Notes: generated by a model not told the origin, from the letters alone. A stretch of DNA of 64,000 bases from an uncultured bacterium (GCA_963708045.1 OY970181.1:779537-843536); one strand, 5' to 3'; counted from the first letter of the stretch, positions 6,645 through 24,245 are shown. Translations and numbers: made by a program.

Positions 6645-6645
6645 T

Positions 6646-8139: not shown

Positions 8140-8143
8140 ATAT

Positions 8144-8620
8144 TTATTCAACGGATTTATTATTAAGATTTTCAGGTTGTTTAGAATTTTGGTCGGCAAC
8201 AGTCGGTTCCGTGGGCTGTCTTATGGTCATGGAGGCAAGCCGGAGTGCTTCTTTAACGGTCGCTTCTTGCTCCTCAGTTAGTTCTTCTTGCGGACGAGCC
8301 GCCGCTACTTCCAGTCGGTCGCGGAAGCGTGGACTTCTTTTCCTAAGCCAGAAACTGATTGCGTTAAAGTTTTGTTCTTTTATCGCGGTAATGAGCTTGG
8401 ACTCGGCCATGTCGCTCACCAGTTCGTCGCCCTCGTCGATGGCCGCATCGCAGGCCGTTGCAAAATGCGGATCTTCTTTGCGCCAGCGGTAATATGTGGC
8501 GCGGCTAACACTTGTCTTTTCGCACGAGAGCTGGACGATCGGCGTTTTCTTAAGCTGATCGATGAGTGCGATCTTTTGTTCTTTTTGTCGCTCCAAGGCG
8601 GCTTCGTTAGCGTTTTCCAT
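8144..8620 (-). CDS. phage terminase small subunit-like HTH protein
   Basis: 'CEKTSVSRATYYRWRKEDPHFATACDAAIDE...AISFWLRKRSPRFRD' matches the HTH-containing terminase small-subunit family pattern. Position immediately upstream of TerL. Confidence 0.6.
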   Translation of the reverse strand: MENANEAALERQKEQKIALIDQLKKTPIVQLSCEKTSVSRATYYRWRKEDPHFATACDAAIDEGDELVSDMAESKLITAIKEQNFNAISFWLRKRSPRFRDRLEVAAARPQEELTEEQEATVKEALRLASMTIRQPTEPTVADQNSKQPENLNNKSVE

Positions 8621-9404
8621 AGATGCTGGTCAATTTAACGGCTTTAATTCCTGTATGGTTCTCAATGCGCCTGATGATGGTTCGGCAGTACTCAATATCC
8701 GCCTCGACCATATAACAGCGTCGTTTGGTATCCTCACAGGCGATCATTGTCGAACCAGAACCGCCAAAGCCGTCGTAGACGATTTCATTGACCTTGGTGC
8801 TGTTTAGGATTAGACGGCGTAGCAACCCGACCGGCTTCATCGTTGGATGAAGCTTGCTGGCACTTGGTTTAGGATAAACAAGAATCGACTTGTCCTTTGC
8901 TTTGTGGAATTTATGCCGTCCGAACCAGCCATAGGCGATAAGTTCGTGTTGGGGTAGGTAGTCCATCCGTCCGATTACGGCGTGCGTCTTTATCCAGATC
9001 AGTAGTTGCGTAAACGCGTAGCCGGCTTCGCGCATCGCCTCGCGAAGCGCGAAGATCATCTTGTCGGAGTTGAAGATATAGACGCTGTTGTGACTCGCGA
9101 GAAACGGACGAACAGCCATAAGCCAGTCTTTGGTAAAGGCGCGGTATTCGTCGTCGGTCTGTTCGTGGTCGTTTAGGATTATTTTTTCTTTACCAAGTTT
9201 TTGCTTGAATCCGGACTTGCTTTCAACGTACCCGACGGCGTACGGCGGATCGATAACGACGGCGGCAATCTTGTCTTTTCCGATCAATGTTGCGACCGAT
9301 GACGCGTCAAGCGAACTACCGCACAAGAGGCGGTGTTCGCCGATGGCGAAAATATCGCCTTGATTAACCGATACGGACGGCTTTGTTTTTTGTGAGGGCT
9401 TCAT
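8607..9404 (-). CDS. DNA methyltransferase (N4/N6 class, DNA_methylase_N-4/N-6 domain)
   Basis: 'VVIDPPYAVGY' (DPPY motif IV) near the N-terminus and 'FGGSGSTMIACEDTKRRCYMVE' (motif I) near the C-terminus. ATG start. Confidence 0.8.
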   Translation of the reverse strand: MKPSQKTKPSVSVNQGDIFAIGEHRLLCGSSLDASSVATLIGKDKIAAVVIDPPYAVGYVESKSGFKQKLGKEKIILNDHEQTDDEYRAFTKDWLMAVRPFLASHNSVYIFNSDKMIFALREAMREAGYAFTQLLIWIKTHAVIGRMDYLPQHELIAYGWFGRHKFHKAKDKSILVYPKPSASKLHPTMKPVGLLRRLILNSTKVNEIVYDGFGGSGSTMIACEDTKRRCYMVEADIEYCRTIIRRIENHTGIKAVKLTSIYGKR

Positions 9405-10659
9405 ATCTTTTTATGATTAGGGTACAAAAGACGGGATCGATTTCACACAGAAAGGCGCGGCGCTTCATCTGCTCGCAACAGGAAAGAGTAGAGCCAGAAC
9501 CGCCGAATAAGTCCAAGACAGTATCGCCGGGTTTGGTACAACGGCGCATGGCTTTTTCATGAAGTGTCGTTGGTTTTTCCGTCGGGTGCTCGTAGTCTTG
9601 CGCCGGAAGACGTTTGACGAGCCAGATGTTAAAGAGATCGATAATGTCGTCGATGGCGCGATTACCACTCGCGACTTCTTTATTCAACACCTCGTTAAGG
9701 TTTTGTATGCGTGGTACAAGGAACGGTTTGCCGCGTGTGCCATAGACGCAAGGCTCGTATGCCTTGTTGAACGCGACTTGCGGAGTCATATTAAAGTTAT
9801 TTTTGACCCAAAGGCAGACGCGTCGATTAACAATGCCTAGTTCCTCGTATAAACTCTGAACCAATCCGATACTCGCTTCGTCGCACCAGAAGAAAACATG
9901 CGTATTCGGTTTTGCGACCGCAAGACCATTTTCCATCGCTCGCTTTAAGAATAGGCGATAGTCAGCATGCGTCTTTTTATCGTTTGTTTCACCGCCGTAT
10001 TTTCCTGATGTGCTGATGCCTTTGCTGTAATCAAGGGAAATGTTATACGGAGGGTCGCTGTAGATCATGTCGATTTGGTTTTTGCCTACCAATCGTTTAA
10101 TCAACTTCGGGTCGGTTGAGTCGGAACACAGCAAGGTATGGCTTCCCAGCCGATACATTTCGTCCAGCTTAACGGTTGGTTTTTTAATCGCGGCAAGTTC
10201 CTTTTCAGTATCAAAATCGTCGTCCTCGGCTTCAAGCGAATCGTCCCAGACATTACCCAAGTCGATATCGTCGAAACCAGCATCAAGAAGCATTTCGATA
10301 TCAAACTCCTTGAGCATCTCAAAGTCCCATGATCCGTGAGCGCGATTTAGCGTTAGATTCAACGCCTTTTCTTTTTCGATATTCGGTATGTTCACGAAGA
10401 CCGCCGGAATTTCGGTGATGCCAAGTTCCTTTGCGCAGGCAACCCGCATATGGCCACCGATTAGGACGCCTTTCCGCGCAGGCGCGGAATTGACCAGCAC
10501 AGGATCAACTAACCCGTACTTTAAGATGCTTTCTTTTAACGTCGCCTTTTCGGACTCTGACCATTTTCTGGGGTTATAGATGGCCGGTTGTAACGATCCG
10601 ATCGGGATATATTGAACGGCGATTTTTGTGTCGTCGTGAGTTAGTATATTTTTTGGCAT
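9364..10659 (-). CDS. ParB-like nuclease domain fused to DNA methyltransferase (phage-type ParB-MTase)
   Basis: N-terminal ParB/Srx-like segment 'IPIGSLQPAIYNPRKW...GGHMRVACAKELG'. It is followed by 'MIYSDPPYNISLDY' and 'DLFGGSGSTLSCCEQMKRRAFLCE' MTase motifs. The track start (10725) is a TTG. The first ATG is at 10659. Confidence 0.8.
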   Translation of the reverse strand: MPKNILTHDDTKIAVQYIPIGSLQPAIYNPRKWSESEKATLKESILKYGLVDPVLVNSAPARKGVLIGGHMRVACAKELGITEIPAVFVNIPNIEKEKALNLTLNRAHGSWDFEMLKEFDIEMLLDAGFDDIDLGNVWDDSLEAEDDDFDTEKELAAIKKPTVKLDEMYRLGSHTLLCSDSTDPKLIKRLVGKNQIDMIYSDPPYNISLDYSKGISTSGKYGGETNDKKTHADYRLFLKRAMENGLAVAKPNTHVFFWCDEASIGLVQSLYEELGIVNRRVCLWVKNNFNMTPQVAFNKAYEPCVYGTRGKPFLVPRIQNLNEVLNKEVASGNRAIDDIIDLFNIWLVKRLPAQDYEHPTEKPTTLHEKAMRRCTKPGDTVLDLFGGSGSTLSCCEQMKRRAFLCEIDPVFCTLIIKRYEALTKNKAVRIG

Positions 10660-10701
10660 ATTTTTAGAAGAGATATGAAGAGTAAGCACAGAAATAAAAA
10701 T

Positions 10702-10763
10702 GCCCACCTCGCGGAGATGAGTCAAAATCTAAAAAGACTTTGGTTAATCTCTGCGAAGTGGGC
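10702..10763 (-). terminator. long stem-loop (17-bp imperfect stem) followed by a T-run on the minus strand
   Basis: 'gcccacctcgcggagat' (10702-10718) pairs with 'atctctgcgaagtgggc' (10747-10763) with 2 mismatches. On the minus strand the stem is followed by 'attttta ttt'. It lies between the 149-aa minus-strand ORF and the ParB-MTase gene. Confidence 0.35.
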
Positions 10764-11464: not shown

Positions 11465-11782
11465 TCAGAGAGTTTTTAGCTGTTCGTTATATTTAGGACT
11501 GAAGCGCCTAATTTCGTTTGCCTCAAGTGCGATTGCTTCAGTAGCTGAACCACAGACCGTGAAATTGAAGTGTGTGACATCTGGCCAGTAATCATCCGTA
11601 AGGTGCTGAAGCAAGCGTCCGCGAATTCCGCCATCGGCAACCGATCTCCCGATGTAGTAAGGGACGACGCCGCTACCATCTCGAATCGGAATTCCGCAGT
11701 AGTAGATGCCGATGGCGCTGGAGTTCCAGTCGGTTAAGGTCTGTTTGTTGTATAAATATGGTCCTTTATAGTGATTTCCCAT
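11465..11782 (-). CDS. GIY-YIG nuclease domain protein
   Basis: 'GIYYCG...PYYIGRS...RLLQH...EANEI' gives the GIY / YIG / R / E order of the GIY-YIG catalytic core. Confidence 0.7.
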   Translation of the reverse strand: MGNHYKGPYLYNKQTLTDWNSSAIGIYYCGIPIRDGSGVVPYYIGRSVADGGIRGRLLQHLTDDYWPDVTHFNFTVCGSATEAIALEANEIRRFSPKYNEQLKTL

Positions 11783-12019
11783 AGAAATGGGGTTAATGTT
11801 AGTCCAACCCCATTTCTACTCGGAGACAAGCGATGTTGTTTAAGAGTAATTTCCGGGGGTGGTATTGGTTATATACTGACTTCGCCCATAAGACCCTTGA
11901 TTGTTTTTCAAGGCTTTGATATTTGGCTAGTTATTATAGATAAAACGTCTTTTCGCTGTGCAACGGCGATTAGGCGGTGGGTAATATTAGAATATATCCT
12001 AGAATGACGCAATATGTTC

Positions 12020-12048
12020 TTGACCTAACTTATCCACAGTGCTATGAT
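12020..12048 (+). promoter_or_regulatory. sigma70-like promoter TTGACC-N17-TATGAT; the predicted TSS lies only a few nt before the ATG (leaderless-type)
   Basis: 'ttgacc' at 12020-12025, an exact 17-nt spacer, 'tatgat' at 12043-12048, and the ATG at 12058. A small palindrome 'ttagctaa' lies between the -10 and the ATG. Confidence 0.5.
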
Positions 12049-12057
12049 TAGCTAATT

Positions 12058-12663
12058 ATGAACAACCTCCACCGAACGCAGTCTAAGCTCTTGGAACTCC
12101 TTAAGGAGAACCAGACAGAGCCATTGACCATGATGGAGCTGAAGGAAGAAATGAGCCTCTCGTCCACGAGCGTGGTTTTTCACCATATACGCCAACTAGA
12201 GAAGAAAGGTCTTTTACGTCGTAACCCGGCAAACCCTAACGACTATCAGGTACTCTCGGAAGACGATAAAGATAAAAAGATTGCTTATTTAAATTTATAC
12301 GGTTTGGCCCAATGCGGTCCTCATGGAACCATCTTAGAAGATACGCCGGTTGATCGAATTCCTATTTCAACACAGATACTTGGTTTTTCGTCCACCGATG
12401 CGTTTTTGGTTCGCGCACGTGGTAACTCGATGGTGCCGAAAATATACAATAACGATCTTGTTATCGTAAAGAAGACTGAAAATATAAACGATGGCGATGT
12501 TGCCGTATGTGTAAATGAAGGTGAGGCTCTAATTAAGAAGGTAAGAAAGATAGACTCAAAAATATTTTTATTTTCTGAAAATCACGAATTTGAATCTTTT
12601 CCAGCGAGCGATGATTTCCGCGTTGTTGGCGTGGTAAGAGGTGTGCTTTCCTACACGATCTAA
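12058..12663 (+). CDS. LexA/CI-like transcriptional repressor (HTH + S24 peptidase domain)
   Basis: N-terminal winged-HTH 'MMELKEEMSLSSTSVVFHHIRQLEKKGLL'. The C-terminal S24 domain has 'GNSMVP' (Ser nucleophile) and a downstream Lys ('LIKKV'). Confidence 0.8.
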   Translation: MNNLHRTQSKLLELLKENQTEPLTMMELKEEMSLSSTSVVFHHIRQLEKKGLLRRNPANPNDYQVLSEDDKDKKIAYLNLYGLAQCGPHGTILEDTPVDRIPISTQILGFSSTDAFLVRARGNSMVPKIYNNDLVIVKKTENINDGDVAVCVNEGEALIKKVRKIDSKIFLFSENHEFESFPASDDFRVVGVVRGVLSYTI

Positions 12664-12676
12664 TAAATTTGTATTT

Positions 12677-13336
12677 ATGTCCTTTGAAAAACCGATTTCG
12701 AAAAAGATAGGGCGTAATGATCCTTGTTTTTGCGAATCGGGCAAGAAATATAAAAAATGTTGTTGGTTAGACGGAATTAAAATTACATCGACAGAAATAG
12801 GTAAGCATGGCCCGCCGCAGTCAATCGAAAAATATGTAGTCGATTTTTGTAAGACTATTTCCAACGATGATCCATTTTACATGGGGGTAGAGTCAGGAGC
12901 CGATGATGAACCGCTGGATTGTTTTAATAACGTTCGAAAATATATAACAAAAAGTGGCGGGGACATGATGCTGGGCTGGCAAATATGGGAATGGTATGGA
13001 TTTATGATTGAGGCAGAGTTCCATGCAGTTTGGAAAACCACCGACGGTGAATTAAAAGATGTGACGCCGAAACCTATACCTTTCGATCGGGTTTTGTTTT
13101 TGCCAGACGCGTCTCTGGAATACGATGAAACTCAAATTAATAATAAACGTTTCGCTCTATCTAAAGATATTCGCGTAACGGAATACATTAACCTGTGCGA
13201 AGAGGAATTTAAAATTAAAAATTTAGGCGAGAGAGCTAAGAAATACGATGGCCTCAATTTTTCTGCAGACGAGATTAAGCGTCTAGAAGAAATATTTCAG
13301 CGTCGTATTGAAATTGAACATGAATTGGTACAATAA
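12677..13336 (+). CDS. SEC-C motif (SecA C-terminal zinc-binding-like) domain protein
   Basis: 'RNDPCFCESGKKYKKCC' is the SEC-C metal-binding motif. The track start (12641) overlaps the upstream gene. The ATG at 12677 ('MSFEKPI') is preferred. Confidence 0.55.
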   Translation: MSFEKPISKKIGRNDPCFCESGKKYKKCCWLDGIKITSTEIGKHGPPQSIEKYVVDFCKTISNDDPFYMGVESGADDEPLDCFNNVRKYITKSGGDMMLGWQIWEWYGFMIEAEFHAVWKTTDGELKDVTPKPIPFDRVLFLPDASLEYDETQINNKRFALSKDIRVTEYINLCEEEFKIKNLGERAKKYDGLNFSADEIKRLEEIFQRRIEIEHELVQ

Positions 13337-13814
13337 AGTCTTAAAAGTTGTAGTCAAGGAACAGGTAACGATAGCGACATTCACAGTTACCGCGTTGTCC
13401 GGCGTACTCACATGGCGGTATGGCTTCCATCATGCTTTCGCATGGCAAAATATTACGCCGATATCCGCACCGGAGCTATTCGAGCGTGTGATTTACAGCG
13501 CATTGGTATTCGTGAGTATCGGGGCTTTTCTTTACTGGGCTAAGTTTTATAAGTGGTTGCATGGGGTAATCGTTATTGGTCTCGAAGACCGATGGCTCTA
13601 CAGGAAAGTAAAGGCGATTATCTGGGGTATCTTGATGCTGGTCATGTATTTTTGGATCGTTCCGACCGTCGTAAATATCTTAAATTTTGTGGTTTCACTA
13701 ATATACAACCTCTTAAACTTTGCGATATATCTTTTCCCGCCAATTGGTTGTGCTGTTATAGTCACCGGTTTGGCGGGTATATTCGTTCTACGTAAGGGGA
13801 ATCTGCACGATTAA
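13308..13814 (+). CDS. hypothetical polytopic membrane protein
   Basis: Three to four hydrophobic helices. No motif. An alternative start lies at 13320. Confidence 0.4.
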   Translation: MKLNMNWYNKVLKVVVKEQVTIATFTVTALSGVLTWRYGFHHAFAWQNITPISAPELFERVIYSALVFVSIGAFLYWAKFYKWLHGVIVIGLEDRWLYRKVKAIIWGILMLVMYFWIVPTVVNILNFVVSLIYNLLNFAIYLFPPIGCAVIVTGLAGIFVLRKGNLHD

Positions 13815-13825
13815 GATATAAGATT

Positions 13826-14545
13826 ATGAAATATTTGAAGAAATTGCACCTATTATGTTTTTCAATAGAAGAAATAAAACAACTTCTAAGTGATGAATTT
13901 AAAAGGATCGTATTTGATGGTCTCGGTAAACAACAGATTGACTTAACCGCTTTTCGCAAAAACCGCAAGGCCATGGAAGATTTTGTTTCCGATTTGGTGA
14001 GAAAGAACAGTAAACGAAAAGAATTCGTCAAACTGTTTTATGCTACTGATTTGGCTGATTCCGTTTATGTGTCTAATGATACCTTGGTCTGTTTTGAATT
14101 AAAGAAAACCATACAACCAAATTCTATTCCAATCCCCAATAATTATCAGGAATTGATTGATATCTTAGAGGAGAATACGCCCGTTGATTTTGCCATCTCA
14201 AACAAAGAGGGGCTTAGGCAATTTCAGTTGAAACAATATAAAGATTTATTAGAAACCGAAAAAGTTGCCGAATTCATAAAGAAAAAGCTCAAGACTTACG
14301 GAAACCTTGGACAAATTAATTTGTTGGTCGTGCTTCAGGGGCGCGATAACGATGGTTCCACAATTGTTCCTGTTAATATTGATTTTGATAAAGTTTATAA
14401 CCACTTAAAAGATGGAAAATTTAAAATAGCCGCGGAAGTCTTAATCGCAATGAACGACCGAAATGAGGAACAGACATTCACTCAAGTTTATCCAAAATTG
14501 AATCGATTCAGAAAAAAGATTTCAATGTCTAGCTCGCGGTGGTGA
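13826..14545 (+). CDS. hypothetical protein (239 aa)
   Basis: Clean ORF with no competitors. No recognisable motif. Confidence 0.45.
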   Translation: MKYLKKLHLLCFSIEEIKQLLSDEFKRIVFDGLGKQQIDLTAFRKNRKAMEDFVSDLVRKNSKRKEFVKLFYATDLADSVYVSNDTLVCFELKKTIQPNSIPIPNNYQELIDILEENTPVDFAISNKEGLRQFQLKQYKDLLETEKVAEFIKKKLKTYGNLGQINLLVVLQGRDNDGSTIVPVNIDFDKVYNHLKDGKFKIAAEVLIAMNDRNEEQTFTQVYPKLNRFRKKISMSSSRW

Positions 14546-14601
14546 AGTTGGGAATAATAAAAATGTTCAAGGTGTAATTAGCTAGATTCTATTAAAAACA
14601 T

Positions 14602-15156
14602 ATGTTCAAAAAAAGAATAATAAAGTATCGGAATATTCTAAAAAAATTACCTCTAATAATCCCTCTTTTTGCAATTGCAATAACACTGATTATAAATATT
14701 TGGAATTCCTATGCGAGTTTTAATGGGAGATTAAAGGTTTTACTTAGTGCTACGGTTTATAATAATGGCATTTTCAATACCGTGGAGTCGAGTATAAAAG
14801 ATGGAAGCTTCAATCAGAAAAATTTTTCTAGTAGTTTTAATATAGATATCTATAAAAATAATCTAGACTTATTAGGTTCGTTACGGGGTGATTGTATCGA
14901 GACATATTTTCAACTAATCGCGCGCATGGATGGTATTAATCGTAAGAATGATAAACTTTGGGATTTATATATACAAGAAGGTCTTATTTTTGAAAGTAAT
15001 CAATGGAAAAATACAAAAGAACGTCAAGAAGGTTTGCAAAATGATTTAAAAAAAGAAGTACTCGAGGTTGTTTCTCTCTTTAATACGATTCACAAAAATT
15101 CAAACTGTGCATTTCGTACAAAAAACTTCCTAGGAATATTTTCCCCGGGATTATAA
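14602..15156 (+). CDS. hypothetical protein with N-terminal TM anchor (184 aa)
   Basis: N-terminal 'LPLIIPLFAIAITLIINIW' hydrophobic segment. No motif. Confidence 0.45.
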   Translation: MFKKRIIKYRNILKKLPLIIPLFAIAITLIINIWNSYASFNGRLKVLLSATVYNNGIFNTVESSIKDGSFNQKNFSSSFNIDIYKNNLDLLGSLRGDCIETYFQLIARMDGINRKNDKLWDLYIQEGLIFESNQWKNTKERQEGLQNDLKKEVLEVVSLFNTIHKNSNCAFRTKNFLGIFSPGL

Positions 15157-15222
15157 TACTAACAAGCGTGGGCAAGAGCTGGGCCATGTTTTTCCGGTGG
15201 CGAGCTGTCTATTATCGGGTAA

Positions 15223-16545
15223 ATGCTATTCATAACAATGCATTTTAAAATTCATATGCCCGGCCACATTGATACCGATATCCAATATTGCCTCTACGCG
15301 AGAAAAAGTACCGAATCGGAAGAACGCCAATCGCTATCAATAGAATCCCAGATTAAAGAAATGACCCGGGTCGCAGAACGTGATCGGTTGGTTATTAAAG
15401 AAATCAAACGCGAAAGCCGGTCGGCAAAATCACACGGCGGTCGTCAGGTTTTTAACGATCTCATCAACGAAATTAGCCAAGGTAAATTTACCGGCATCGT
15501 CGCTTGGTCGCCGGATCGGTTAAGTCGCAATGCAGGTGATTTAGGTGTCTTGGTAGATTTGATGGATGCTGGAAAGCTTTTAGAAATTCGGACTTTTAAC
15601 CAAAGATTTACAAATTCGCCAAACGAAAAGTTTTTACTCATGATCTTGGGTAGCCAGGCCAAACTTGAGAATGATAATCGGAGCGTTAACGTAAAGCGGG
15701 GGATGCGGGCGCGGGTTGAGATGGGGTTATGGCCGGGAGTGTCACCGCTGGGCTATCTTAATCAATACCGAACCGATAAGAAGTGCGAGATTATAGTTGA
15801 TGAAGCTCGTGCACCAATAATCAAGCAGATGTTCAAGAAAGTCGCCGACGAAAAATGGACAACGCGCGATATACATAAATGGCTTAAGGATACCGGTTTT
15901 AAAACTCGTGGAGATAAACCCCTCGCTTATAGCGGTGTGCAGCGAATGCTGACGAACTCTTTTTACTACGGAAGATTTGAATACCCAAGGAACAGCGGCA
16001 AATGGCATACCGGTAAACACGAGCCGATAATTACCAAAGATTTATTCGAACGGACACAACAAAGATACCGCCGCCTTTCTTATAAAAGTAAAGTAAGGGA
16101 ATTTTCATTCGTTCGGCTTTTTACCTGCGGCCTTTGCGGATCTGGAATATCCGCCAGCGAAAAGTTTAAAAATCTCAGCGACGGCACGGTTGCGCGTTAT
16201 ATTTATTACAACTGCAACCTCGGTAAAGATAGGTTTTGTAAAAATACATCTATTAGGGAGGAGGAGCTAATTAAGGAGTTGATTAAGGTTGTCGATACTG
16301 CCGAAATTGACGAACTTGGTATCCGTCATAAATTTGAAAATGAAGTTGAACGATTTGGAAAATTCAACAATTACATTCTCGGAAAACCTACTGATCTAAA
16401 GCCCGAAGAAATTGACATAAATATCCGCGCGTACGCCAAGTATGTCCTCATGGACGGATCAAAAAGCGAAAAACGAGAGCTGCTCGGCCACCTGCGAAGT
16501 CGCTTGGTTTATACGCACAAAAGGTTTAAGCTACTCCCGTCTTAA
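15223..16545 (+). CDS. large serine recombinase, paralog of the 456..1766 gene
   Basis: 'YCLYARKSTESEERQSLSIESQ', 'DRLSRN', and zinc ribbon 'CGLCGSG...YYNCNLGKDRFC'. It aligns by eye along its whole length with the first recombinase (roughly half identical). Orientation is inverted relative to the first. Confidence 0.9.
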   Translation: MLFITMHFKIHMPGHIDTDIQYCLYARKSTESEERQSLSIESQIKEMTRVAERDRLVIKEIKRESRSAKSHGGRQVFNDLINEISQGKFTGIVAWSPDRLSRNAGDLGVLVDLMDAGKLLEIRTFNQRFTNSPNEKFLLMILGSQAKLENDNRSVNVKRGMRARVEMGLWPGVSPLGYLNQYRTDKKCEIIVDEARAPIIKQMFKKVADEKWTTRDIHKWLKDTGFKTRGDKPLAYSGVQRMLTNSFYYGRFEYPRNSGKWHTGKHEPIITKDLFERTQQRYRRLSYKSKVREFSFVRLFTCGLCGSGISASEKFKNLSDGTVARYIYYNCNLGKDRFCKNTSIREEELIKELIKVVDTAEIDELGIRHKFENEVERFGKFNNYILGKPTDLKPEEIDINIRAYAKYVLMDGSKSEKRELLGHLRSRLVYTHKRFKLLPS

Positions 16546-16555
16546 GATCACATAT

Positions 16556-17452
16556 ATGTGTTTGTTATCAAAAGACATAGTAAAATCCGTTTTTAGTGAT
16601 AATTTTCCTTTAGTAAAAACGAATAGAGAATTGGAGGCGCTAATCAATGCGAATACCTGTTTTGATTCATCATATGTTTCATCGGGATGTATTTCAAATA
16701 GAAAAGAAAAAATTGATGCACTCTGGCCTATTTTTAAGCCGTATGCTGATAAAGATTTTTTAAATCAAATACGTTTAGATTTTGATCAAAGGTGTTGGGA
16801 AATGTATTTGGCTAATTTATTTAACGGTCATTTTGACATCTCGGCGAGCAATAATAATCATGGACCAGATTTTATTTTAAATAAACAAATTTGTGTTGAG
16901 GCCACCGTATGTAATCATGGCGAGGGTTCGGACAGGGTTCCTGAGATTCGCATAGCAGATTTTACAAAAGGTGAACATCCAATCGTGCAAACGATTCCAG
17001 AAAAAGAAATGATTTTAAGAATAACCTCCGCGATTAGTGAAAAGTTAACACAATATAGTCGGTGGCTGGGTAGTATCTCGTCAATAAATGAGCAATCGCC
17101 ATTTGTGATTGCGATAAACATGGGTAGTTTGGGGTTTCCAAGTCCGGGAGATTTACCGTTTATTTTGAAACCTTTGTTTGGAATTGGCCATAGGCAGTTT
17201 CAGAAGGACTCCGATTGTTTATTGGATTGTGGTTGGAGTTTCCGTCCAACTACCGTTAAAAAAAATGGCTCGCAAGTTAACACTTGCATCTTTGATGATG
17301 GACAATATGCGGCAATAAGCGCCATTTTATTTTCGGGAACGCGGGTTCTCGATCACCCACAGACTATTGGAACGGATTGCATTGTTGTTCGTAACCTCAA
17401 TGCGAAGAATCCGATTAATCCAGAGATTTTTTCCTTTCTTCGTGTTTATTAA
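16556..17452 (+). CDS. hypothetical protein (298 aa)
   Basis: ATG 11 nt after the recombinase stop (the track start 16442 overlaps the recombinase). No confident motif. Confidence 0.45.
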   Translation: MCLLSKDIVKSVFSDNFPLVKTNRELEALINANTCFDSSYVSSGCISNRKEKIDALWPIFKPYADKDFLNQIRLDFDQRCWEMYLANLFNGHFDISASNNNHGPDFILNKQICVEATVCNHGEGSDRVPEIRIADFTKGEHPIVQTIPEKEMILRITSAISEKLTQYSRWLGSISSINEQSPFVIAINMGSLGFPSPGDLPFILKPLFGIGHRQFQKDSDCLLDCGWSFRPTTVKKNGSQVNTCIFDDGQYAAISAILFSGTRVLDHPQTIGTDCIVVRNLNAKNPINPEIFSFLRVY

Positions 17453-17713
17453 TTTTTTCTTTTAAATCCTTATTTTTTTGATGGTAAGACACTACCCGCG
17501 AGACAGTCAAAACACCCTCGTTCTGTGTCTTTTTTGTCTCACGGTGACCCTCAAAACCGATGAGACCTAGGTGCCTCAAACTCTATCTTAAATACCCCAT
17601 AAAGGTTGAGCAAAATTCGGTTCAGTACCCACCCTGCGAGCCAGGAAAATTTCTTATCGTGCATACCCGCTTGCCCATGGCGACGGGGGTACCCGATTGG
17701 GTCTTGTCCGATA

Positions 17714-17741
17714 GACAAAACCGCCGAAAGGCGGTTTTGTC
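17714..17741. terminator. perfect 12-bp stem / GAAA tetraloop hairpin inside an ORF-free structured region
   Basis: 'gacaaaaccgcc' 'gaaa' 'ggcggttttgtc' is perfectly complementary. It lies within the 417-bp ORF-poor region 17460-17876. Confidence 0.5.
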
Positions 17742-17876
17742 GTATTGTCGTGGCGATTTTTTATACAGTCACCATTTTTTAGGACAAATGCGTGTCTCGG
17801 TTGCGCACGGAAGACGGTTGGGTGATAATGGAAGGGTCGAGAAAAAAATGATAAATACGGACCAGAGCATAAAGTT

Positions 17877-18401
17877 ATGTTAAGCAAAAAGGCATACATC
17901 GCCATGCGGGGTAAATATACACCAAAAAAGATAAGGGTGATTTTTGTTTTGGAGTCACCGCCCGAATCTGGAAAGTATTTTTATAATTTGAACGGAAAAA
18001 TTTCAGAACCCCTTTTTAGAGCAATGATGGGGTTAATCGGATGCAAGTCGTCCGATAAATCTTTAGGTTTGGCTGGATTTGTTAAGAGTGGATTTATTAT
18101 AGTCGATGCGACTTATGTGCCAGTAAATCACAGCAGAAACATAAGAGAACGCAATCAAGTTATATTGGAATCGTATCCAGACCTCGTTAAAGATTTACGG
18201 GCTGTTACTAAGAATAAAAAGACGCCTATTATTTTGGTTAAAGCGAATATCTGCGAACTTCTGGCCAATCCACTCAAGGCAGATGGTTTTAATGTTATAA
18301 ATGATGGAGTCAGAATTCCGTTTCCGGCATCAGGCCAGCAGACAAGGTTTCGAGAACGGGTTGCTGTGGTTTTTAAGAAAGCGGCACTAACCAAAAAATA
18401 A
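17877..18401 (+). CDS. hypothetical protein (174 aa)
   Basis: Clean ORF. 'VIFVLESPPESGKYFY' N-terminal segment. No confident family assignment. Confidence 0.45.
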   Translation: MLSKKAYIAMRGKYTPKKIRVIFVLESPPESGKYFYNLNGKISEPLFRAMMGLIGCKSSDKSLGLAGFVKSGFIIVDATYVPVNHSRNIRERNQVILESYPDLVKDLRAVTKNKKTPIILVKANICELLANPLKADGFNVINDGVRIPFPASGQQTRFRERVAVVFKKAALTKK

Positions 18402-18405
18402 AAAT

Positions 18406-18861
18406 ATGGAGTTAACACAAAGAGATCATGAAATAATCGGCCGAGTTTGGGATATCGTTTATTCGTCAGGCCGTAAGATGCCCGCGCATTTTACCAGCAA
18501 TGGCGATCGTTACATGAGTTTTTGTATTGATTTTGAACCGTTGACTAAAAAGGATGATGAAAATATGGCAGGAGAGGCATGGGGGTCTATAGATCAGTAT
18601 CTTGCCAACAAGCCAGAAATACCAAAGCCGCAGTTTATGGCAATAGTTGTTTGCGGCGAGGATGTAATGATCGGGGCTTACATAATCACGAAACTCGGCT
18701 CAATGAATTTGATTGAAAGCCTGAAAGAAGCGCTCGTGGCTAATACTATAAAATCGTTTCCGACACTAAATGATCTGAATGATGTTTTTGTGTTGCCGTA
18801 TGTTAAAGATTATTTTGACCACTGTATGAAATATGGCGAGCGCACGGCCGATGGACTATAA
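18406..18861 (+). CDS. hypothetical protein (151 aa)
   Basis: Starts 5 nt after the upstream gene stop (operon-like). No motif. Confidence 0.45.
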   Translation: MELTQRDHEIIGRVWDIVYSSGRKMPAHFTSNGDRYMSFCIDFEPLTKKDDENMAGEAWGSIDQYLANKPEIPKPQFMAIVVCGEDVMIGAYIITKLGSMNLIESLKEALVANTIKSFPTLNDLNDVFVLPYVKDYFDHCMKYGERTADGL

Positions 18862-18908
18862 GTTCGGGCACACCTTTATGATGTAAAGTACGTTACTATT
18901 GATAATTA

Positions 18909-19295
18909 ATGGTCGACCCACAAATACTCGCATTCGCAAAATCTTTGCCAAAAATATTTGAAGACGCTTCGTTAGAAGCCGCGTTGATATTTTGGAGTGT
19001 TTTTCTTAATTTCTTAAAAATTAATTGTTTGCTCACTATTGGATTTATATTTGTAGTGTTTGTTGTAGTTGCGATTAAAGCCATGTACGGCAGATGGGGA
19101 AGTTTGGGTAGTTTCCTGTACAAATTTTTCTATTTCGGAACCCTATTAGTGCTCGGTCTCATATTTGGTCCGGGCATCTTCTTGAATGATTGGTTCAATG
19201 CCACATGTGCCGCGATTCTATATCCGGTCTGCTATTGGCTGGTTGGAAGGATATTGGTCAAAACGCGTTTCCTCGAATACACCCAATCGTCATAG
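18909..19295 (+). CDS. hypothetical membrane protein (128 aa)
   Basis: Three hydrophobic helices. Confidence 0.4.
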   Translation: MVDPQILAFAKSLPKIFEDASLEAALIFWSVFLNFLKINCLLTIGFIFVVFVVVAIKAMYGRWGSLGSFLYKFFYFGTLLVLGLIFGPGIFLNDWFNATCAAILYPVCYWLVGRILVKTRFLEYTQSS

Positions 19296-19321
19296 TACGA
19301 TAAGTTTATAAAAACAATAAA

Positions 19322-19516
19322 ATGGAAATATCTATTCATACGATAGATGCGCGTGATAACGTTTTTCTTGAAATAATTAAGAAGAAATTCGGCTTGTCTC
19401 CATCGGCGATGCTTGCTGCTATCCAAAATTTTTTTAATGAAACTGTTAGTGTATTAGAAACTAAAGGGATAAAATATACTGAATTACGTGGCGCATTAGC
19501 TCCAGGCACCGATTGA
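19322..19516 (+). CDS. hypothetical small protein (64 aa)
   Basis: Short ORF in an operon-like position. Confidence 0.3.
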   Translation: MEISIHTIDARDNVFLEIIKKKFGLSPSAMLAAIQNFFNETVSVLETKGIKYTELRGALAPGTD

Positions 19517-19522
19517 AAAGAG

Positions 19523-20437
19523 ATGGTATTAGTTTTTGACAGAACAAAAATTAGTAATTCTTTTTATGGGATGGAAGTATATAAACGTGTTTTACCAGCG
19601 ATCTCTCTCTATTGCCTAGATAGTTCGCACTGTGTTCTGCATGGTGATTATTTGGCAGTCACTGGTCACGAGGTAAAACAAAAGAGTGATTTATTTTCTA
19701 AAATTGTACAGTGCAATACAACAAATTATGTTAGACCGAATCAATATTTTTTGGTTTATATAAATAATTTAACAAAGCACATGTTGGCAGGTATCAATAA
19801 ATCTTTGATGCTTTACGATGCTTATATTGGCTATGCTGATACTTCGACCTTTTCTCGCTTCAAATCGTACTTATCAACTACGCTACCGCAATCTTTTATT
19901 TGGTTTAGAAAAACCGCGTTAATGGCCCATGAGGATGATAGGCCAAACTCAGAAGATGTTAATACACAATGTCTGCCTGAAGAAGGTTTGAAAATACGTA
20001 GCATTCAATCGCTATATTATGGCGTTTTTCTATCATATAAAATTCAAAGACCAGTGTTGTCTTTGCTAGAAGTTGATAATTTGATTTCGTTAAACGCAAT
20101 TAGCGATAAGCCAGTAAGCTTATTGAATTTTGATGTGCGTCTTGAAGAGTCAAAACTTCAATATCTTCTAACGAACAAGAGGGAAAGCCTTGAACGGTTA
20201 GGCCTGGCGAACTCCGATACGAAGAAAATATCTGCCCTCATCAAAAATAGGTTAAATTCCGGATACCTTTATAATCTTAGAATTATCGAGCCGAATGGTA
20301 AAAAAGTGATGCTATTTAATATTCAATTAGAAAAAATAAACGGGGTCAGTTCTGATTTTCGCGCTGTTGTTAGTATAAGCAGACAAAAATTATCTTTTTG
20401 TTATGCAAAAAAATTGTTGTGTGTTAGAGGTGTATAA
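19523..20437 (+). CDS. hypothetical protein (304 aa)
   Basis: Long ORF. No motif. Its 3' end contains the left copy of the REP-like repeat. Confidence 0.45.
   Translation: MVLVFDRTKISNSFYGMEVYKRVLPAISLYCLDSSHCVLHGDYLAVTGHEVKQKSDLFSKIVQCNTTNYVRPNQYFLVYINNLTKHMLAGINKSLMLYDAYIGYADTSTFSRFKSYLSTTLPQSFIWFRKTALMAHEDDRPNSEDVNTQCLPEEGLKIRSIQSLYYGVFLSYKIQRPVLSLLEVDNLISLNAISDKPVSLLNFDVRLEESKLQYLLTNKRESLERLGLANSDTKKISALIKNRLNSGYLYNLRIIEPNGKKVMLFNIQLEKINGVSSDFRAVVSISRQKLSFCYAKKLLCVRGV
20342..20354 (-). repeat. REP-like repeat copy (reverse complement of CAGAACTGACCCC), left flank of the Y1 transposase gene
   Basis: 'ggggtcagttctg' at 20342-20354. It is inverted relative to the copy at 21178. Confidence 0.5.
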
Positions 20438-20497
20438 CAGTTTCATTGAAAAATGAAGATAAAAATTAGATGATGGCATAAATAGTATTTTATTTTT

Positions 20498-21178
20498 ATG
20501 CCTAGACCTCCACGGATCAAAGCTCCAAATTTGTTATTTCACATTATGAATCGTGGAAATGGGCGACAGCGCGTCTTTTATTCTGATAAGGCGTACAAAG
20601 AATTTTATGAGATCATGATCCGTTATAAAAAATTGTTTCCAATCAAAATATTTCACTACGTTTTAATGCCTAATCATTTTCATTTGTTGGTTGAATCGGA
20701 AAACGAGACGGCGATTTCAAAGTTTATGCAACGCGTCACCTTGTCGCATACGCGCCGGTTTAACTTGAAATATCATACAGTTGGCCACCTGTGGCAAGGT
20801 CGATTTAAAAGCATTTTGATTGATTCTGATGAATACTATCTCCAATGCGGACGCTACATTGATCTAAATCCGATTCGTGCGAAATTGGTAGAACATCCGT
20901 CAGAGTGGCGTTGGAGTAGTTATGGGGCTTTGGCGAACGGCGCGAAAGAACAGCTTGTTGATTTTCATCCTCTGTATGTTGCTTTGGGAAATGATAAAAA
21001 TATTAGGCAAAAAAATTACGCGAGATTTGTTAAAATGGAAATAGATGCTTCGCGGTTAAATAATGCGATGCGTTTTTCGGAAAAATATTTTTATGGGAAA
21101 GATGAGTTTATCGAACAGATTAAAGAAAAATATTTTGTAGTCATCCCGCGTCCGAAGGCTGGTAGGCCGCGAAATTAG
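20498..21178 (+). CDS. tnpA: Y1/HUH tyrosine transposase (IS200-like / REP-associated tyrosine transposase family, Y1_Tnp)
   Basis: 'IFHYVLMPNHFHLLVE' is the HUH motif (H-F-H flanked by hydrophobics). 'WQGRFKSILIDSDEYYLQCGRYIDLNPIRAKLVEHPSEWRWSSY' contains the conserved catalytic-Tyr region of the IS200/RAYT family. Confidence 0.8.
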   Translation: MPRPPRIKAPNLLFHIMNRGNGRQRVFYSDKAYKEFYEIMIRYKKLFPIKIFHYVLMPNHFHLLVESENETAISKFMQRVTLSHTRRFNLKYHTVGHLWQGRFKSILIDSDEYYLQCGRYIDLNPIRAKLVEHPSEWRWSSYGALANGAKEQLVDFHPLYVALGNDKNIRQKNYARFVKMEIDASRLNNAMRFSEKYFYGKDEFIEQIKEKYFVVIPRPKAGRPRN

Positions 21179-21191
21179 AACTGACCCCATT
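21176..21191 (+). repeat. REP-like repeat copy TAGAACTGACCCCATT, overlapping the tnpA stop codon
   Basis: Identical core 'GAACTGACCCCATT' also at 21999-22012. A degenerate copy 'gacttgaccccatt' is at 23683-23696. Confidence 0.5.
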
Positions 21192-21246
21192 ATTAAATAG
21201 CCCCGCCGTTGGAAGACGGGCGGGGCTTGTACCATTTAGCGCCGAG

Positions 21247-21268
21247 GACGGAAGTCTCCGTCTTTTTA
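21247..21268 (+). terminator. rho-independent terminator downstream of tnpA
   Basis: 'gacgga' 'agtc' 'tccgtc' followed by 'ttttta'. It is flanked by two further perfect hairpins (21199-21227 with a 9-bp stem; 21292-21313 with a 9-bp stem). Confidence 0.5.
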
Positions 21269-21344
21269 CGCGAGCAGGTCTCGTAGAATTCGCTTGCTTC
21301 GTATGAAGCAAGCCTGTGGTCAAGATACTCTCATTGTTTGTTTG

Positions 21345-21731
21345 TTAGTCGTTTAGCGGCAGGACAAGCGTTGCGACGTAATCACACTCACGTATCAGCG
21401 AACATCCATAGTAACTTCCATGGCGTCCACGTATCTCGGTGGCAGAGGTGAACGTTCCAGAAACTATATAGCCGTCCGTGGGACATTCTGTGCCATCAGC
21501 TCCCCAGCCGTGGACGCAGCTGAATGTTCCGCAGGTCACGCGAAAAAAGGCGGCAATGCCCTCCGAGAAAGTAATTTGCAAAAGTCCGGTGGAGCTATTG
21601 TGAGACAGGTTGAGAGAGAAATCATTATACAAGTAAGTATCGGTGCCTGCGTCCGGTACAAGGGCAGTCATTTTGTAAATACCTGTATTCGGTTTCTCGT
21701 AGCCGCATGTTGCGGGTGTTGTTTTAAGCAC
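21345..21731 (-). CDS. hypothetical Cys-containing protein (128 aa)
   Basis: Minus-strand ORF between the tnpA terminator and the ars promoter region. Several Cys and Gly/Thr-rich segments. No motif. Confidence 0.3.
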   Translation of the reverse strand: MLKTTPATCGYEKPNTGIYKMTALVPDAGTDTYLYNDFSLNLSHNSSTGLLQITFSEGIAAFFRVTCGTFSCVHGWGADGTECPTDGYIVSGTFTSATEIRGRHGSYYGCSLIRECDYVATLVLPLND

Positions 21732-21996
21732 GCCGTCTTTGTCTGTTGCGGGAGAAATACAACCGCAAAAAGAGGCAAAGCATACGTAAATCGAAAGTTT
21801 TGTTCATTTCCTTCTTCCTGTAATTGATAGGCTAGGTCGTTTTTTACGCGTTGTCAATGATAGTCATAAGTAAATGTGGTTAGTTTTAATTTTCACGACG
21901 TTGTAGTATAAACAGACATAAATTATCTTTTTGTTGAAAGTTGTTGAAAGCCGATCGGGGTCAATTAAATTTTTTTTAACATATCACACATCAATC

Positions 21997-22012
21997 AGAA
22001 CTGACCCCATTG
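21997..22012 (+). repeat. REP-like repeat copy CAGAACTGACCCCATT
   Basis: Exact 15/16 match to the copy at 21176. It is preceded at 21953-21960 by an inverted partial copy 'cggggtca' that could pair with it. Confidence 0.5.
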
Positions 22013-22036
22013 TTATGGTTTAATTCACGCTATTTA

Positions 22037-22070
22037 CTATATCAATATATGTTGATATAGTAATCAACAT
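22037..22070. promoter_or_regulatory. candidate ArsR operator: two overlapping perfect inverted repeats directly upstream of arsR
   Basis: P1 is 'ctatatcaa-tatatg-ttgatatag' (9-bp arms, 22037-22060). P2 is 'atgttgat-atagta-atcaacat' (8-bp arms, 22049-22070). The arsR ATG is at 22076. ArsR/SmtB operators are AT-rich imperfect inverted repeats that overlap their own promoter. Confidence 0.45.
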
Positions 22071-22075
22071 AAAAT

Positions 22076-22381
22076 ATGACGCCAAAATGTTGTCTTAACA
22101 AAAGGTCATTTGTTGAGCTTGACGATACGGTCAAATTTTTAAAGGTTGTAGCTGATGAAAATCGGTTAAAAATTTTGTGTATGCTTCGGTCGGGGGAAAA
22201 GTGTGTTTGCGAAATTTGGAAATTTCTTAATCTCTCGCAAAACCTTACCTCGCATCACTTAAAGGTATTAAAATCTTTTGGTTTGGTTTGCGACAGAAAA
22301 GATGGACTTAATGTATATTATTCAATTAACAAAGGTGAAATCGTTAAATACGATTCATTATTAACAAAATTTTTACGATGA
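22076..22381 (+). CDS. arsR: ArsR/SmtB-family metalloregulatory transcriptional repressor
   Basis: Winged HTH 'ADENRLKILCMLRSGEKCVCEIWKFLNLSQNLTSHHLKVLKSFGLV' with the Cys pair 'CVC' at the metal-sensing position of the alpha3 helix. Confidence 0.8.
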   Translation: MTPKCCLNKRSFVELDDTVKFLKVVADENRLKILCMLRSGEKCVCEIWKFLNLSQNLTSHHLKVLKSFGLVCDRKDGLNVYYSINKGEIVKYDSLLTKFLR

Positions 22382-22382
22382 T

Positions 22383-22682
22383 ATGAGCAATAATAAAATT
22401 CAGGTTTTAGGTTCTGGCTGTCATTCGTGCAAGAAGTTGTTTGAACTTACAAAACAGGCAGTGCGGGAGCTGGGGATTGATACCGAAGTTGAATATATTA
22501 CCGACATCCAAAAAATCATAGAGATGGGCGTGATGCAGAGCCCGGTGCTAGCTATAAACGGCAAACCAGTAATGGCCGGATCGGTATCGGACATAGAAAG
22601 AATAAAAGAGCTGATAACTAATCAGCCCAACAGTTCTATATCCAGTAATACACCGTCCTGCAATTGCGGAGGTAATTGTTAG
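22383..22682 (+). CDS. thioredoxin-fold small redox-active disulfide protein (Thioredoxin_3-like)
   Basis: 'KIQVLGSGCHSCKKLFE' CxxC motif in a roughly 80-aa thioredoxin-like protein. This is a common partner of ArsP/DUF318 permeases. The start lies 1 nt after the arsR stop. Confidence 0.65.
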   Translation: MSNNKIQVLGSGCHSCKKLFELTKQAVRELGIDTEVEYITDIQKIIEMGVMQSPVLAINGKPVMAGSVSDIERIKELITNQPNSSISSNTPSCNCGGNC

Positions 22683-22691
22683 TCCAAGTCT

Positions 22692-23669
22692 ATGGATATT
22701 TTTTACCCGATACAATTACTGGCGGATTTCATTAACCGCCTGATCGGCTTAGAAAAAACATCGTATTTTGGGAGTGCAACTAATTTTTTTGTTTACGACA
22801 CGATTAAAATTGGTCTATTACTGGTTGTTATAAATTACGTAATGGCCATCACCCGTTACTATTTCCCGATGGAAAGGGCTAGGAATATTCTAACCAAGAA
22901 ACGCTGGTTCGGGTTAAATTACCTAATGGCCGCCGTGCTCGGCATAGTTACGCCGTTCTGTTCATGCTCGTCAATTCCGCTTTTCATCGGATTCGTGGGG
23001 GCGGGGATACCGATGGGAATAACCTTTGCCTTTTTAATCAGCTCACCCCTCATCAACGAATCGTCGCTATATTTATTTCCGGCGATGTTCGGTTGGAAAG
23101 TGACGATCTTATACAACTTGTTCGGACTGGCGATTGCAATAATTGGAGGCATGATTATTCAAAAACTTAATGTAGAAAAATATATTATTCCAGAATTGTT
23201 GAAATTCAAATCACGATCTCAGATTGAAGCGGAAAACGGTAACAAGAAGCTTTCATTTGAGAAACTTGTTTCATATTTTTGGAAAGACGGAATGAAGATT
23301 ACAAAACAAATTTTCCCTTATGTTATTTTAGGGGTCGGGGTCGGGGCGATTATCCACGGTTTTGTGCCGAGCGGTTTAGTTGAACGCTATCTATCCGCCA
23401 AAGCATGGTGGACTGTGCCCTTGGCTGTTATTTTAGGCGCCCCGCTTTACGCCAACTCAGTAAGTGTAATTCCTATAATGGAGGCGCTCGTTGGGAAAGG
23501 CGCCCCGCTTGGTACGGTTCTGGCCTTTATGACGGCAATAGTGACGCTTTCTATTCCTGAAGCCTTGATACTTAAAAAAGTCATGCGTTGGCAATTGCTT
23601 GCCATATTTTTTGGCATAACCACTATTGGAATAGTGGTTATGGGATATTTGTTTAATGCAATTTTCTAA
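22692..23669 (+). CDS. arsP: ArsP-type (DUF318) permease, putative organoarsenical efflux permease
   Basis: Polytopic membrane protein with the 'TPFCSCSSIPLF' motif (the TPFCSC motif described for ArsP). It is in an operon with arsR. Confidence 0.65.
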   Translation: MDIFYPIQLLADFINRLIGLEKTSYFGSATNFFVYDTIKIGLLLVVINYVMAITRYYFPMERARNILTKKRWFGLNYLMAAVLGIVTPFCSCSSIPLFIGFVGAGIPMGITFAFLISSPLINESSLYLFPAMFGWKVTILYNLFGLAIAIIGGMIIQKLNVEKYIIPELLKFKSRSQIEAENGNKKLSFEKLVSYFWKDGMKITKQIFPYVILGVGVGAIIHGFVPSGLVERYLSAKAWWTVPLAVILGAPLYANSVSVIPIMEALVGKGAPLGTVLAFMTAIVTLSIPEALILKKVMRWQLLAIFFGITTIGIVVMGYLFNAIF

Positions 23670-23756
23670 CAAATACTGGACTTGACCCCATTATTTTGGC
23701 GGTTATAGAATATCGGAGTATGCTTGAAGAAAAATCGTACCTAATTTTATTTCTTT

Positions 23757-24245
23757 ATGAATCATAAACTTCACGACAAAGAAACCAACGAGCACATTAA
23801 ACAATCCATTACCGCCTGCGCATTTATCCATCAGAGTATAGATGAGGTTGAGAAAGTTTTATTGCTTAAACGTGCAGATACAAAAAAGTTCTTACCAGGC
23901 GTATTTGAATTACTTGGAGGACATATTGATTTTGGTGAAGATATAGTTGATGGTCTGAAACGAGAGGTTATGGAAGAAATTGGAATGAGTATTTCCGTAG
24001 GCGATCCTTTCGCTGCATTTACTTATTCAAACGAAATAAAAAAGTCTCACTCGGTTGAGGTTGTTTATTTCGCAAAGTTCAATGACCCGTTGAAAAATAT
24101 AAAGCTGAACCTAAAAGACCATACCGAAAGTAAGTGGGTTACCGAAAGCGAGATAGCGTCAATTTCTCCGATAAGCGATGCGGAACTAATGATTATTAAA
24201 AAAGGATTCAAAATTTTATCCGGCAAACCACTTTTATTAGGATGA
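23757..24245 (+). CDS. NUDIX hydrolase
   Basis: Perfect Nudix box 'GGHIDFGEDIVDGLKREVMEEIGM' (G-x5-E-x7-R-E-U-x-E-E-x-G-U). Confidence 0.8.
   Translation: MNHKLHDKETNEHIKQSITACAFIHQSIDEVEKVLLLKRADTKKFLPGVFELLGGHIDFGEDIVDGLKREVMEEIGMSISVGDPFAAFTYSNEIKKSHSVEVVYFAKFNDPLKNIKLNLKDHTESKWVTESEIASISPISDAELMIIKKGFKILSGKPLLLG

Follow-up and report, generated by a model that had tools for sequence, protein, structure and literature searches.

The stretch of DNA analysed here, hereafter the window, comprises 64,000 nt from an uncultured bacterium (GCA_963708045.1 OY970181.1:779537-843536), and carries at positions 13308-20437 two runs of genes separated by rec2, the gene of a large serine recombinase. 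Our analysis indicates that this region is probably a patchwork, in which cargo consisting mostly of single genes was acquired independently to the left and right of rec2, and not one multi-gene machine. The original prediction had described nine consecutive open reading frames (ORFs) with no recognisable catalytic motifs, lying between a repressor, a recombinase and a transposase, and had proposed them as candidates for an undescribed accessory system. All nine ORFs were recovered, co-directional and on the plus strand (coordinates refer to the whole window; Table 1), and the repressor, the recombinase and the transposase were each confirmed by their domain content. The ORFs are indeed opaque to general libraries, as none of the nine has a Pfam match above noise or any NCBIfam match, and hydropathy bears out the presence of membrane proteins (multi-pass products of 13308-13814 and 18909-19295, and a single N-terminal anchor in that of 14602-15156). 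The absence of catalytic motifs was an error for at least two ORFs, 16556-17452 and 17877-18401, and probably for a third, 13826-14545. Moreover, 19322-19516 and 19523-20437 are the two parts of one split gene, so that the region holds eight genes and not nine. Homologues were found elsewhere for six of these eight; 14602-15156 and 18909-19295 are called from ORF length and hydrophobic segments only.

Table 1. Features of the region 13308-20437 and of its flanks, by position in the window (TM, transmembrane; UDG, uracil-DNA glycosylase).
Feature	Position	Strand	Basis or remark
rec1, large serine recombinase	456-1766	-	49% identical to rec2
LexA/S24 repressor	12058-12663		Left flank
o168, multi-pass membrane protein	13308-13814	+	Hydropathy, at least 3 TM segments
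o239, rare soluble protein	13826-14545	+	4 homologues
o184, one N-terminal TM anchor	14602-15156	+	Hydropathy
rec2, large serine recombinase	15223-16545	+	Pfam Resolvase, Recombinase and Zn_ribbon_recom; landmark between the two runs
PD-T7-5/PD-T7-1-like protein, 298 aa	16556-17452	+	PADLOC, PHROGs
Gene-free spacer, 424 nt	17453-17876	.	Between 16556-17452 and the UDG-fold gene
UDG-superfamily-fold protein, 174 aa, large unannotated family	17877-18401	+	Predicted fold
o151, rare small protein, 151 aa	18406-18861	+	12 homologues
o128, membrane ORF, about 3 TM segments, putative gene	18909-19295	+	Hydropathy
Split gene of the ~365-aa family	19322-20437	+	In-frame TGA at 19514-19516
Y1 (IS200-like, REP-associated type, RAYT) transposase	20498-21178	+	Pfam Y1_Tnp 1.7e-16; right bound of the run

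Gene neighbourhoods and family distributions

The proposal that the nine ORFs together, or the whole of one run, make up one accessory or defence system of several genes, not described before, is largely refuted, and we consider it barely tenable. The arrangement behind it is real: the ORFs are co-directional and tightly packed, lie beside a repressor, a recombinase and a transposase, and most of them lack annotation. Nevertheless, in 192 fetched loci (L-numbered below; a pairwise tblastn tally over 189 of them, plus L190-L192), no gene combination recurs beyond the pair of genes encoding the 174-aa UDG-fold protein and the 151-aa protein o151 (the 174/151 pair) and a single adjacency of o168 with a UDG-like gene. 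In fact, when all window proteins were compared with these loci by tblastn, the only overlaps were the 174/151 pair in L190/L191, o168 and a UDG-like gene in L106, and the UDG-like gene together with matches to the REP-associated tyrosine transposase (RAYT), REP standing for repetitive extragenic palindrome. Each family is distributed in its own way, with numbers ranging from four homologues to over 360 representatives; one of the genes is of a known stand-alone defence type and another is an apparent pseudogene; the recombinase gene and the 424-nt spacer interrupt the runs; and GC content at third codon positions (GC3) varies from 0.24 to 0.51 among the genes of the region.

Conservation of gene neighbourhood across related genomes, which had been suggested as a check, gave the same picture, both large families being solitary with heterogeneous neighbours. 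At the nucleotide level, a megablast search of plasmids with positions 12000-24000 as query returned no close relatives. Overall, 13308-20437 need not be pursued further as a possible new system of nine genes, and follow-up effort is thereby spared. Of the leads from the region, only the UDG-fold gene, with the 151-aa gene as its facultative partner, has some novelty.

A PD-T7-5-like gene behind the recombinase

PD-T7-5 and PD-T7-1 are single-gene anti-phage systems that came out of a selection from the E. coli pangenome. The product of 16556-17452 is, by sequence comparison, a member of the PD-T7-5 family at the level of the core domain: it matches the PADLOC profiles PD-T7-5 (PDLC04110; E 2.1e-19, 67.8 bits, spanning positions 43-235 of 346) and PD-T7-1 (PDLC04073; E 2.5e-12), as well as phrog_8571 (1e-25). 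Solitary homologues of 317-353 aa were found by tblastn on plasmids and DNA resembling integrative and conjugative elements of Mesorhizobium, Erwinia, Acinetobacter and Nostoc. Alignment with four plasmid homologues fits a start at 16556 and leaves D..D, W-E, P-D, E-A(-T), R, K and a C-terminal N invariant, while a search of PDB sequences with the protein returned noise only.

The gene resembles the known systems in its significant core match to the profile hidden Markov model and in standing alone on mobile DNA. It differs from them in length (298 aa versus about 340-350), in the distant organism that carries it, and in lacking an insertion before the C-terminal H-N-P-x-A-K motif, an insertion found in three of the four plasmid homologues. 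An RmuC-like nuclease domain has been predicted, with low probability, for both PD-T7-1 and PD-T7-5 (PMC10270631), and the conserved acidic/PD...E motif of the window protein is compatible with such a domain, its core being putatively RmuC-like or PD-(D/E)xK-like. The gene begins 10 nt past the recombinase stop, and the exact 298-aa product occurs behind the same recombinase on another assembly. Judging from its sequence, the most likely role of the protein is that of a nuclease-type anti-phage effector working on its own.

In the spacer that follows, a 107-aa ORF (17560-17883) is probably spurious. A structured RNA was considered for 17453-17876 and rejected, with no Rfam match and a folding z-score of only -2.0. 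The spacer also contains a perfect 12-bp hairpin at 17715-17742, GACAAAACCGCC GAAA GGCGGTTTTGTC.

A UDG-fold protein of a large unannotated family

The AlphaFold model of the 17877-18401 product (predicted local distance difference test, pLDDT, 92; predicted template modelling score, pTM, 0.90) has the alpha/beta fold of the UDG superfamily, and the protein is a putative DNA glycosylase. It belongs to a family of 280 homologues (43-66% identity) from many phyla, all of about 170 aa and none with a Pfam domain, in which E26-S-P-P29, D77-A78, K122, N124, F149-P150 and Q155 are invariant. Assignment to the UDG superfamily is by fold only, since no link to curated UDG families emerged at the sequence level: the gene matches none of them in Pfam or NCBIfam, the family profile returned noise against PDB sequences, and hhalign of the family against an E. 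coli MUG sequence gave a probability of 0.1, i.e., no similarity.

In characterised UDGs, motif 1 reads G-x-x-P-G, motif 2 reads H/N-P-S, and the residue that reads the base is usually Asn. The analogous loops of the window family are E-S-P-P and F-P-S-x-G-Q-Q. E-S-P-P follows strand 1 and would thus take the position of motif 1, the water-activating loop; F-P-S-x-G-Q-Q precedes the last helix, as motif 2 does; and the invariant Asp after strand 2 may stand where the base-reading Asn is expected. These equivalences are provisional, because they are drawn from the order of secondary-structure elements without coordinate superposition. The family has the fold in common with SMUG1, MUG/TDG, families 4/5 and UdgX, but its motifs differ, with Asp for the usual Asn. 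From the fold, the most likely activity of the protein is predicted to be base flipping in DNA and cleavage of the N-glycosidic bond.

As a whole, the family is solitary and not defence-specific. A metagenome scan added 80 UDG-like loci, of which 74 had neighbours and entered clustering; the best neighbour cluster was present in four of these 74, and the 138 flanking ORFs with matches fall into 80 Pfam families, mostly metabolic or housekeeping. The contexts of the closest relatives are of another kind. In L190/L191 (66% identity), the UDG-like gene lies right behind genes for an OLD-type AAA_15/21 plus TOPRIM protein and a DinG/RNase-T helicase; in L192 (60%), right behind a type I restriction-modification (RM) system with an AAA_15/21 gene; in L001 (59%), behind an EcoRI-type methylase, MUG113 and GmrSD-HNH; and in L111, behind an AAA_13 ATPase. 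In the window, it comes after the PD-T7-5-like gene. Since the genes of this subclade sit directly behind restriction or defence genes, the target of the protein may be modified or uracil-containing foreign DNA. An unannotated family with more than 280 members can thus be assigned to the UDG fold, with its closest members behind restriction or defence genes; it is a cheap candidate for testing, and UDG-fold and helix-hairpin-helix glycosylases are emerging as anti-phage effectors.

The 151-aa protein and its association with the UDG-fold gene

The two genes 17877-18401 and 18406-18861 had been regarded as translationally coupled. Their tight spacing holds, at 4 nt and with no obvious Shine-Dalgarno sequence, but coupling itself gained no support. 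Only 12 homologues of o151 were found; a scan of IMG/VR detected no relatives, and its profile searched against PDB sequences gave noise only. The family has an invariant block P-A-H-x-T-x-N-G-D-R...S-F-C-x-D-F, plus G-E and H..C..G, and this motif looks enzyme-like.

The association of o151 with the UDG-fold gene is facultative, the pair forming a block in one other lineage without being obligatory. o151 is absent at 83 of 85 UDG-like loci, and three of its five distinct contexts lack a UDG-like gene (BLAST). L010 has it in an element of the window's type, L008 in an integrated element next to rplJL, and L006 behind a SNF2 helicase and a 132-aa gene; its neighbours in these three loci are unrelated to each other and to those of the window (BLAST). 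Moreover, DNA homology between the window and L006 is confined to 18388-18863 (86.6% identity). Within the patchwork, o151 would be a small partner gene, moving together with the UDG-fold gene in one other lineage but found behind other genes elsewhere. One more relative is P0132, a partial protein from a metagenome-assembled genome (MAG) of Chlamydiota, in which the o151 homologue follows the C-terminal 19 positions of an ADP-ribosylglycohydrolase domain (E 9.5e-5), a single hint of fusion.

Concerning L006, the 132-aa gene that precedes the 88%-identical copy of o151 (L006:3840-4238) reads by eye as a small endonuclease of the Vsr/DUF559 type (VDAWFP...LVLEYHGIQH). The o151 gene may tend to follow small DNA-repair-type enzymes.

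A different explanation is that 17877-18861 constitutes a two-gene anti-phage module of the Brig1/Brig2 kind, the other ORFs being unrelated cargo. The glycosylase would then remove a modified phage base, and the small partner would be a regulator, an immunity factor or a second enzyme. Brig1 and Brig2 are UDG-fold defence glycosylases; Brig1 has an acidic residue in place of the usual Asn, and one of its homologues is reported to adjoin an ADP-ribosylglycohydrolase. The window family has an invariant Asp after strand 2, and one relative of o151 is fused to an ADP-ribosylglycohydrolase. In addition, the two genes lie 4 nt apart and are kept as a block in L190/L191, in another context behind an OLD-type nuclease, and in five contexts the closest UDG-like relatives come directly after restriction or defence genes. 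A defence or mobile location of the Brig kind is seen in the window, L190/L191, L192, L001 and L111, but not in the family at large, whose neighbours are mostly housekeeping genes. Furthermore, L190 and L191 are probably one lineage, PADLOC in its 2023 library has no match for the UDG-fold gene, the facultative association described above speaks against a fixed module, the position equivalences come from secondary-structure order, and the likeness to Brig1/Brig2 is by description only. Altogether, we judge such a module unlikely, though deserving of attention.

A bolder version can be put forward as a speculation of similarly low standing. The UDG-fold gene would represent a new, sequence-unrecognisable family of the UDG superfamily, and its recently mobile subclade would form with o151 an anti-phage base-excision module. 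The Asp, standing where the base is read, would direct the enzyme to a modified cytosine-like or other non-canonical base of invading DNA, and the partner, fused to an ADP-ribosylglycohydrolase in one lineage, would control or complement it.

A split gene of a widespread 365-aa family

The ORFs 19322-19516 and 19523-20437 had also been read as translationally coupled. They are instead in the same frame with a single TGA (19514-19516) between them, which indicates a nonsense-split gene or a base-call error. An exhaustive search (E <= 1e-3) gave 367 family representatives, typically of 360-370 aa. The first, 64-aa ORF matches residues 1-65 of family members (35-49% identity), the second, 304-aa ORF matches from their residue 70 on, and the TGA aligns with a conserved Arg. 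On these alignments, 19322-20437 is one split gene: a pseudogene, or the source of an N-terminally truncated 304-aa product, or the result of a base-call error. In the patchwork, it would count as a nonsense-inactivated copy of a solitary ~365-aa family. Recoding of TGA or an alternative genetic code was considered and rejected, as TGA ends 10 of the 45 window ORFs, including tightly packed operon genes.

The family is widespread and solitary, with no conserved neighbour. The gene is intact in 80 of 80 genome loci from very diverse phyla (median 365.5 aa), the best neighbour cluster occurs in eight of the 80, and 144 neighbours belong to 129 Pfam families. The AlphaFold2 (AF2) model (pLDDT 88.7) found no full-length structural match among solved structures in PDB or predicted viral structures in BFVD. 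Two unannotated families therefore stand out in the region, namely this widespread solitary one without a PDB or BFVD match, and the 151-aa family with its enzyme-like invariant motif.

To the right, the Y1 transposase is accompanied by REP-like inverted and direct repeats (I1, I7 and D1; 20325-20402, 21172-21195 and 21904-22025), the core of which is present in three copies in 64 kb, all local, versus 0.7 expected by chance. Right of the cassette, at about 21888-21950, the final ~60 nt of the 365-aa gene are present a second time, in degenerate form (protein ...FSRRCSINRHKLSFC, followed by the stop). The cassette looks as if it had been inserted at the 3' end of the 365-aa gene. As in other RAYTs with REP repeats, a Y1_Tnp protein is placed between short inverted GC-rich repeats; unlike them, the window cassette has only three local repeats in 64 kb and is flanked by a duplicated 3' piece of the neighbouring gene. 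Replacement of the 3' end of the 365-aa gene by the insertion was rejected, as family C-termini align up to 20425, AF2 builds strands there, and the duplicate fragment lies right of the RAYT.

The remaining ORFs

The four other ORFs would add to the patchwork two small membrane proteins (o168 and o128), one N-terminally anchored protein (o184) and one rare soluble protein (o239). o168 has two relatives (40-41% identity), in L185 and L106, and none by tblastn against phages. In L185, the homologue occupies the same relative position, within the divergent arm of an IMG/VR element related to that of the window, and in L106 it is directly upstream of a UDG-like gene. Judging by these matches, o168 is a cargo gene common to the window and a related element. 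Its start may be the ATG at 13320, as the exact 168-aa product is not on record. The L106 stretch (99-2002, a groundwater metagenome contig) continues, after the o168-like and UDG-like genes, with a 163-aa ORF resembling by eye a DEDD-type exonuclease.

Immediately upstream, a gene at 12641-13336 overlaps the end of the repressor gene and the start of o168. It encodes a 231-aa protein with an N-terminal SEC-C zinc motif, whose body matches phrog_37148 (1.5e-27); its PADLOC matches (PDC-S12, E2) are through the SEC-C motif only.

For o239, just four homologues were found in 5.8 billion proteins, in unrelated contexts, and the IMG/VR scan found no relatives. Its alignment has E66, D121-F-A-I and F133-Q-L-K136 invariant, and the resulting E...D-F-A-I...F-Q-L-K, read by eye, possibly resembles the core of PD-(D/E)xK-type nucleases (D...QxK).

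Neither o184 nor o128 has a match in Pfam, PADLOC, PHROGs or NCBIfam. o184 is a singleton cluster at 90% identity and has the lowest GC content in the window (0.30; GC3 0.24), well under that of its neighbours, which suggests that it was acquired separately and recently. The exact product of o128 is not on record.

A recurrent integrative element and its cargo

The part of the window left of the region, 456-10725, contains in order a serine recombinase, type III Mod/Res, bPH, TerL, a TerS-like protein, a methylase and a ParB-methylase. The same core was found in L010, in L090 (a MAG of Candidatus Paceibacterota) and in nine IMG/VR contigs (L180-L188), with a variable slot between TerL and the recombinase. 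Identities between the window core and these loci are 46-61% for the recombinase, 41-60% for TerL, 36-57% for TerS and 30-51% for the ParB-methylase; L187 is an exception, with a different gene order and a recombinase just 37-40% identical. rec2 itself is 50-61% identical to recombinases of related elements. rec1 and rec2 face outward, bracketing the element core and the first ORF run. This arrangement may have arisen from two elements placed head to head, or a single element may possess an additional recombinase. In the preferred explanation, rec2 belongs to a recurrent family of terminase-carrying integrative elements, in which ParB-methylase, TerS and TerL form the core with a serine recombinase and a cargo slot of variable content.

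The cargo varies from element to element. The slot of L181 holds the same type III Res/Mod (74%/53% identity) and a reverse transcriptase; L185, past its recombinase, contains methylases together with a Dsr1-like gene, and it carries the o168 homologue as well; L010 carries DUF4238-Pers and the o151 homologue; and L090 has a 365-aa gene beside its recombinase. Hence o168, o151 and the 365-aa gene are found in or beside three different related elements. The original argument from placement, that accessory cargo adjoins a mobile-element recombinase where defence genes collect, is sustained, and this context points to a recurrent ParB-methylase/TerS/TerL/serine recombinase element ferrying defence cargo in uncultured lineages.

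The element stretches read contain no capsid genes, and neither attachment sites nor an empty site were found for the element, whose right boundary was not located. With their integrase, LexA/S24 repressor, packaging genes without capsid genes and slots with RM or defence genes, phage satellites and cryptic elements (those like phage-inducible chromosomal islands, PICI, and P4-like hotspots) are similar. The window element differs from them in its core of ParB-methylase, TerS, TerL and large serine recombinase, a core seen in IMG/VR contigs and the Candidatus Paceibacterota MAG, and in its two outward recombinases.

With its right end undefined, it could also be that 16556-20437 is ordinary host chromosome, the UDG-fold protein serving housekeeping base-excision repair and the rest being lineage-specific. 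The widespread UDG family, found among metabolic genes at 45-50% identity, would fit, as would the standard stop-codon usage and a GC content similar to that of the downstream host-like genes. However, the recombinase stop and the start of the PD-T7-5-like gene are separated by 10 nt, and this junction recurs on another assembly; o151 and the 365-aa gene are in or beside related elements; homology seams are gene-sized, with a RAYT/REP insertion at the end; and the contexts of the closest UDG-like relatives are those of restriction or defence. We therefore hold a host-chromosome origin to be very unlikely.

Independent acquisition of mostly single-gene cargo remains our preferred explanation. 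The sequence data show the homologies, the fold, the split gene, the absence of conserved neighbourhoods and the related elements, and the biochemical activities and the defence role are inferred from them. Several points weigh against this explanation. The gene contexts are a sample, scored non-exhaustively. As the right boundary of the element was not located, 16556-20437 is only putative cargo of the element. At 45-50% identity, the UDG family is mostly among housekeeping genes, e.g., those for CTP synthase, DAHP synthase and SRAP, so that the window gene could be a repair enzyme and not defence cargo. Moreover, the 174/151 pair is adjacent in L190/L191 too, with 79% nucleotide identity over 936 nt (17904-18838) in a different neighbourhood, and this conservation as a block means that at least two genes may form a functional unit. 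Finally, o128 has no phage relatives by tblastn and no homologue in the 192 loci, large protein collections not having been searched, and o184 has no relatives by phage tblastn or in IMG/VR, the set of 5.8 billion proteins not having been searched.

Other features of the window

Between the ParB-methylase and repressor genes, a 105-aa ORF on the minus strand (11465-11782) has a GIY-YIG-looking sequence (GIYYCG...YYIGRS...E), with no Pfam match at E <= 0.001. Right of the transposase cassette, 22076-23669 comprises a compact operon of ArsR, a thioredoxin-like protein and an ArsP-type permease; a NUDIX gene comes next, and all of these probably belong to the host. Further on, 29386-47126 is a block of 50-57% GC in a window of ~40% GC; it encodes very large proteins (1450, 1586, 1023, 619 and 608 aa), and its first two ORFs overlap by ~200 nt.

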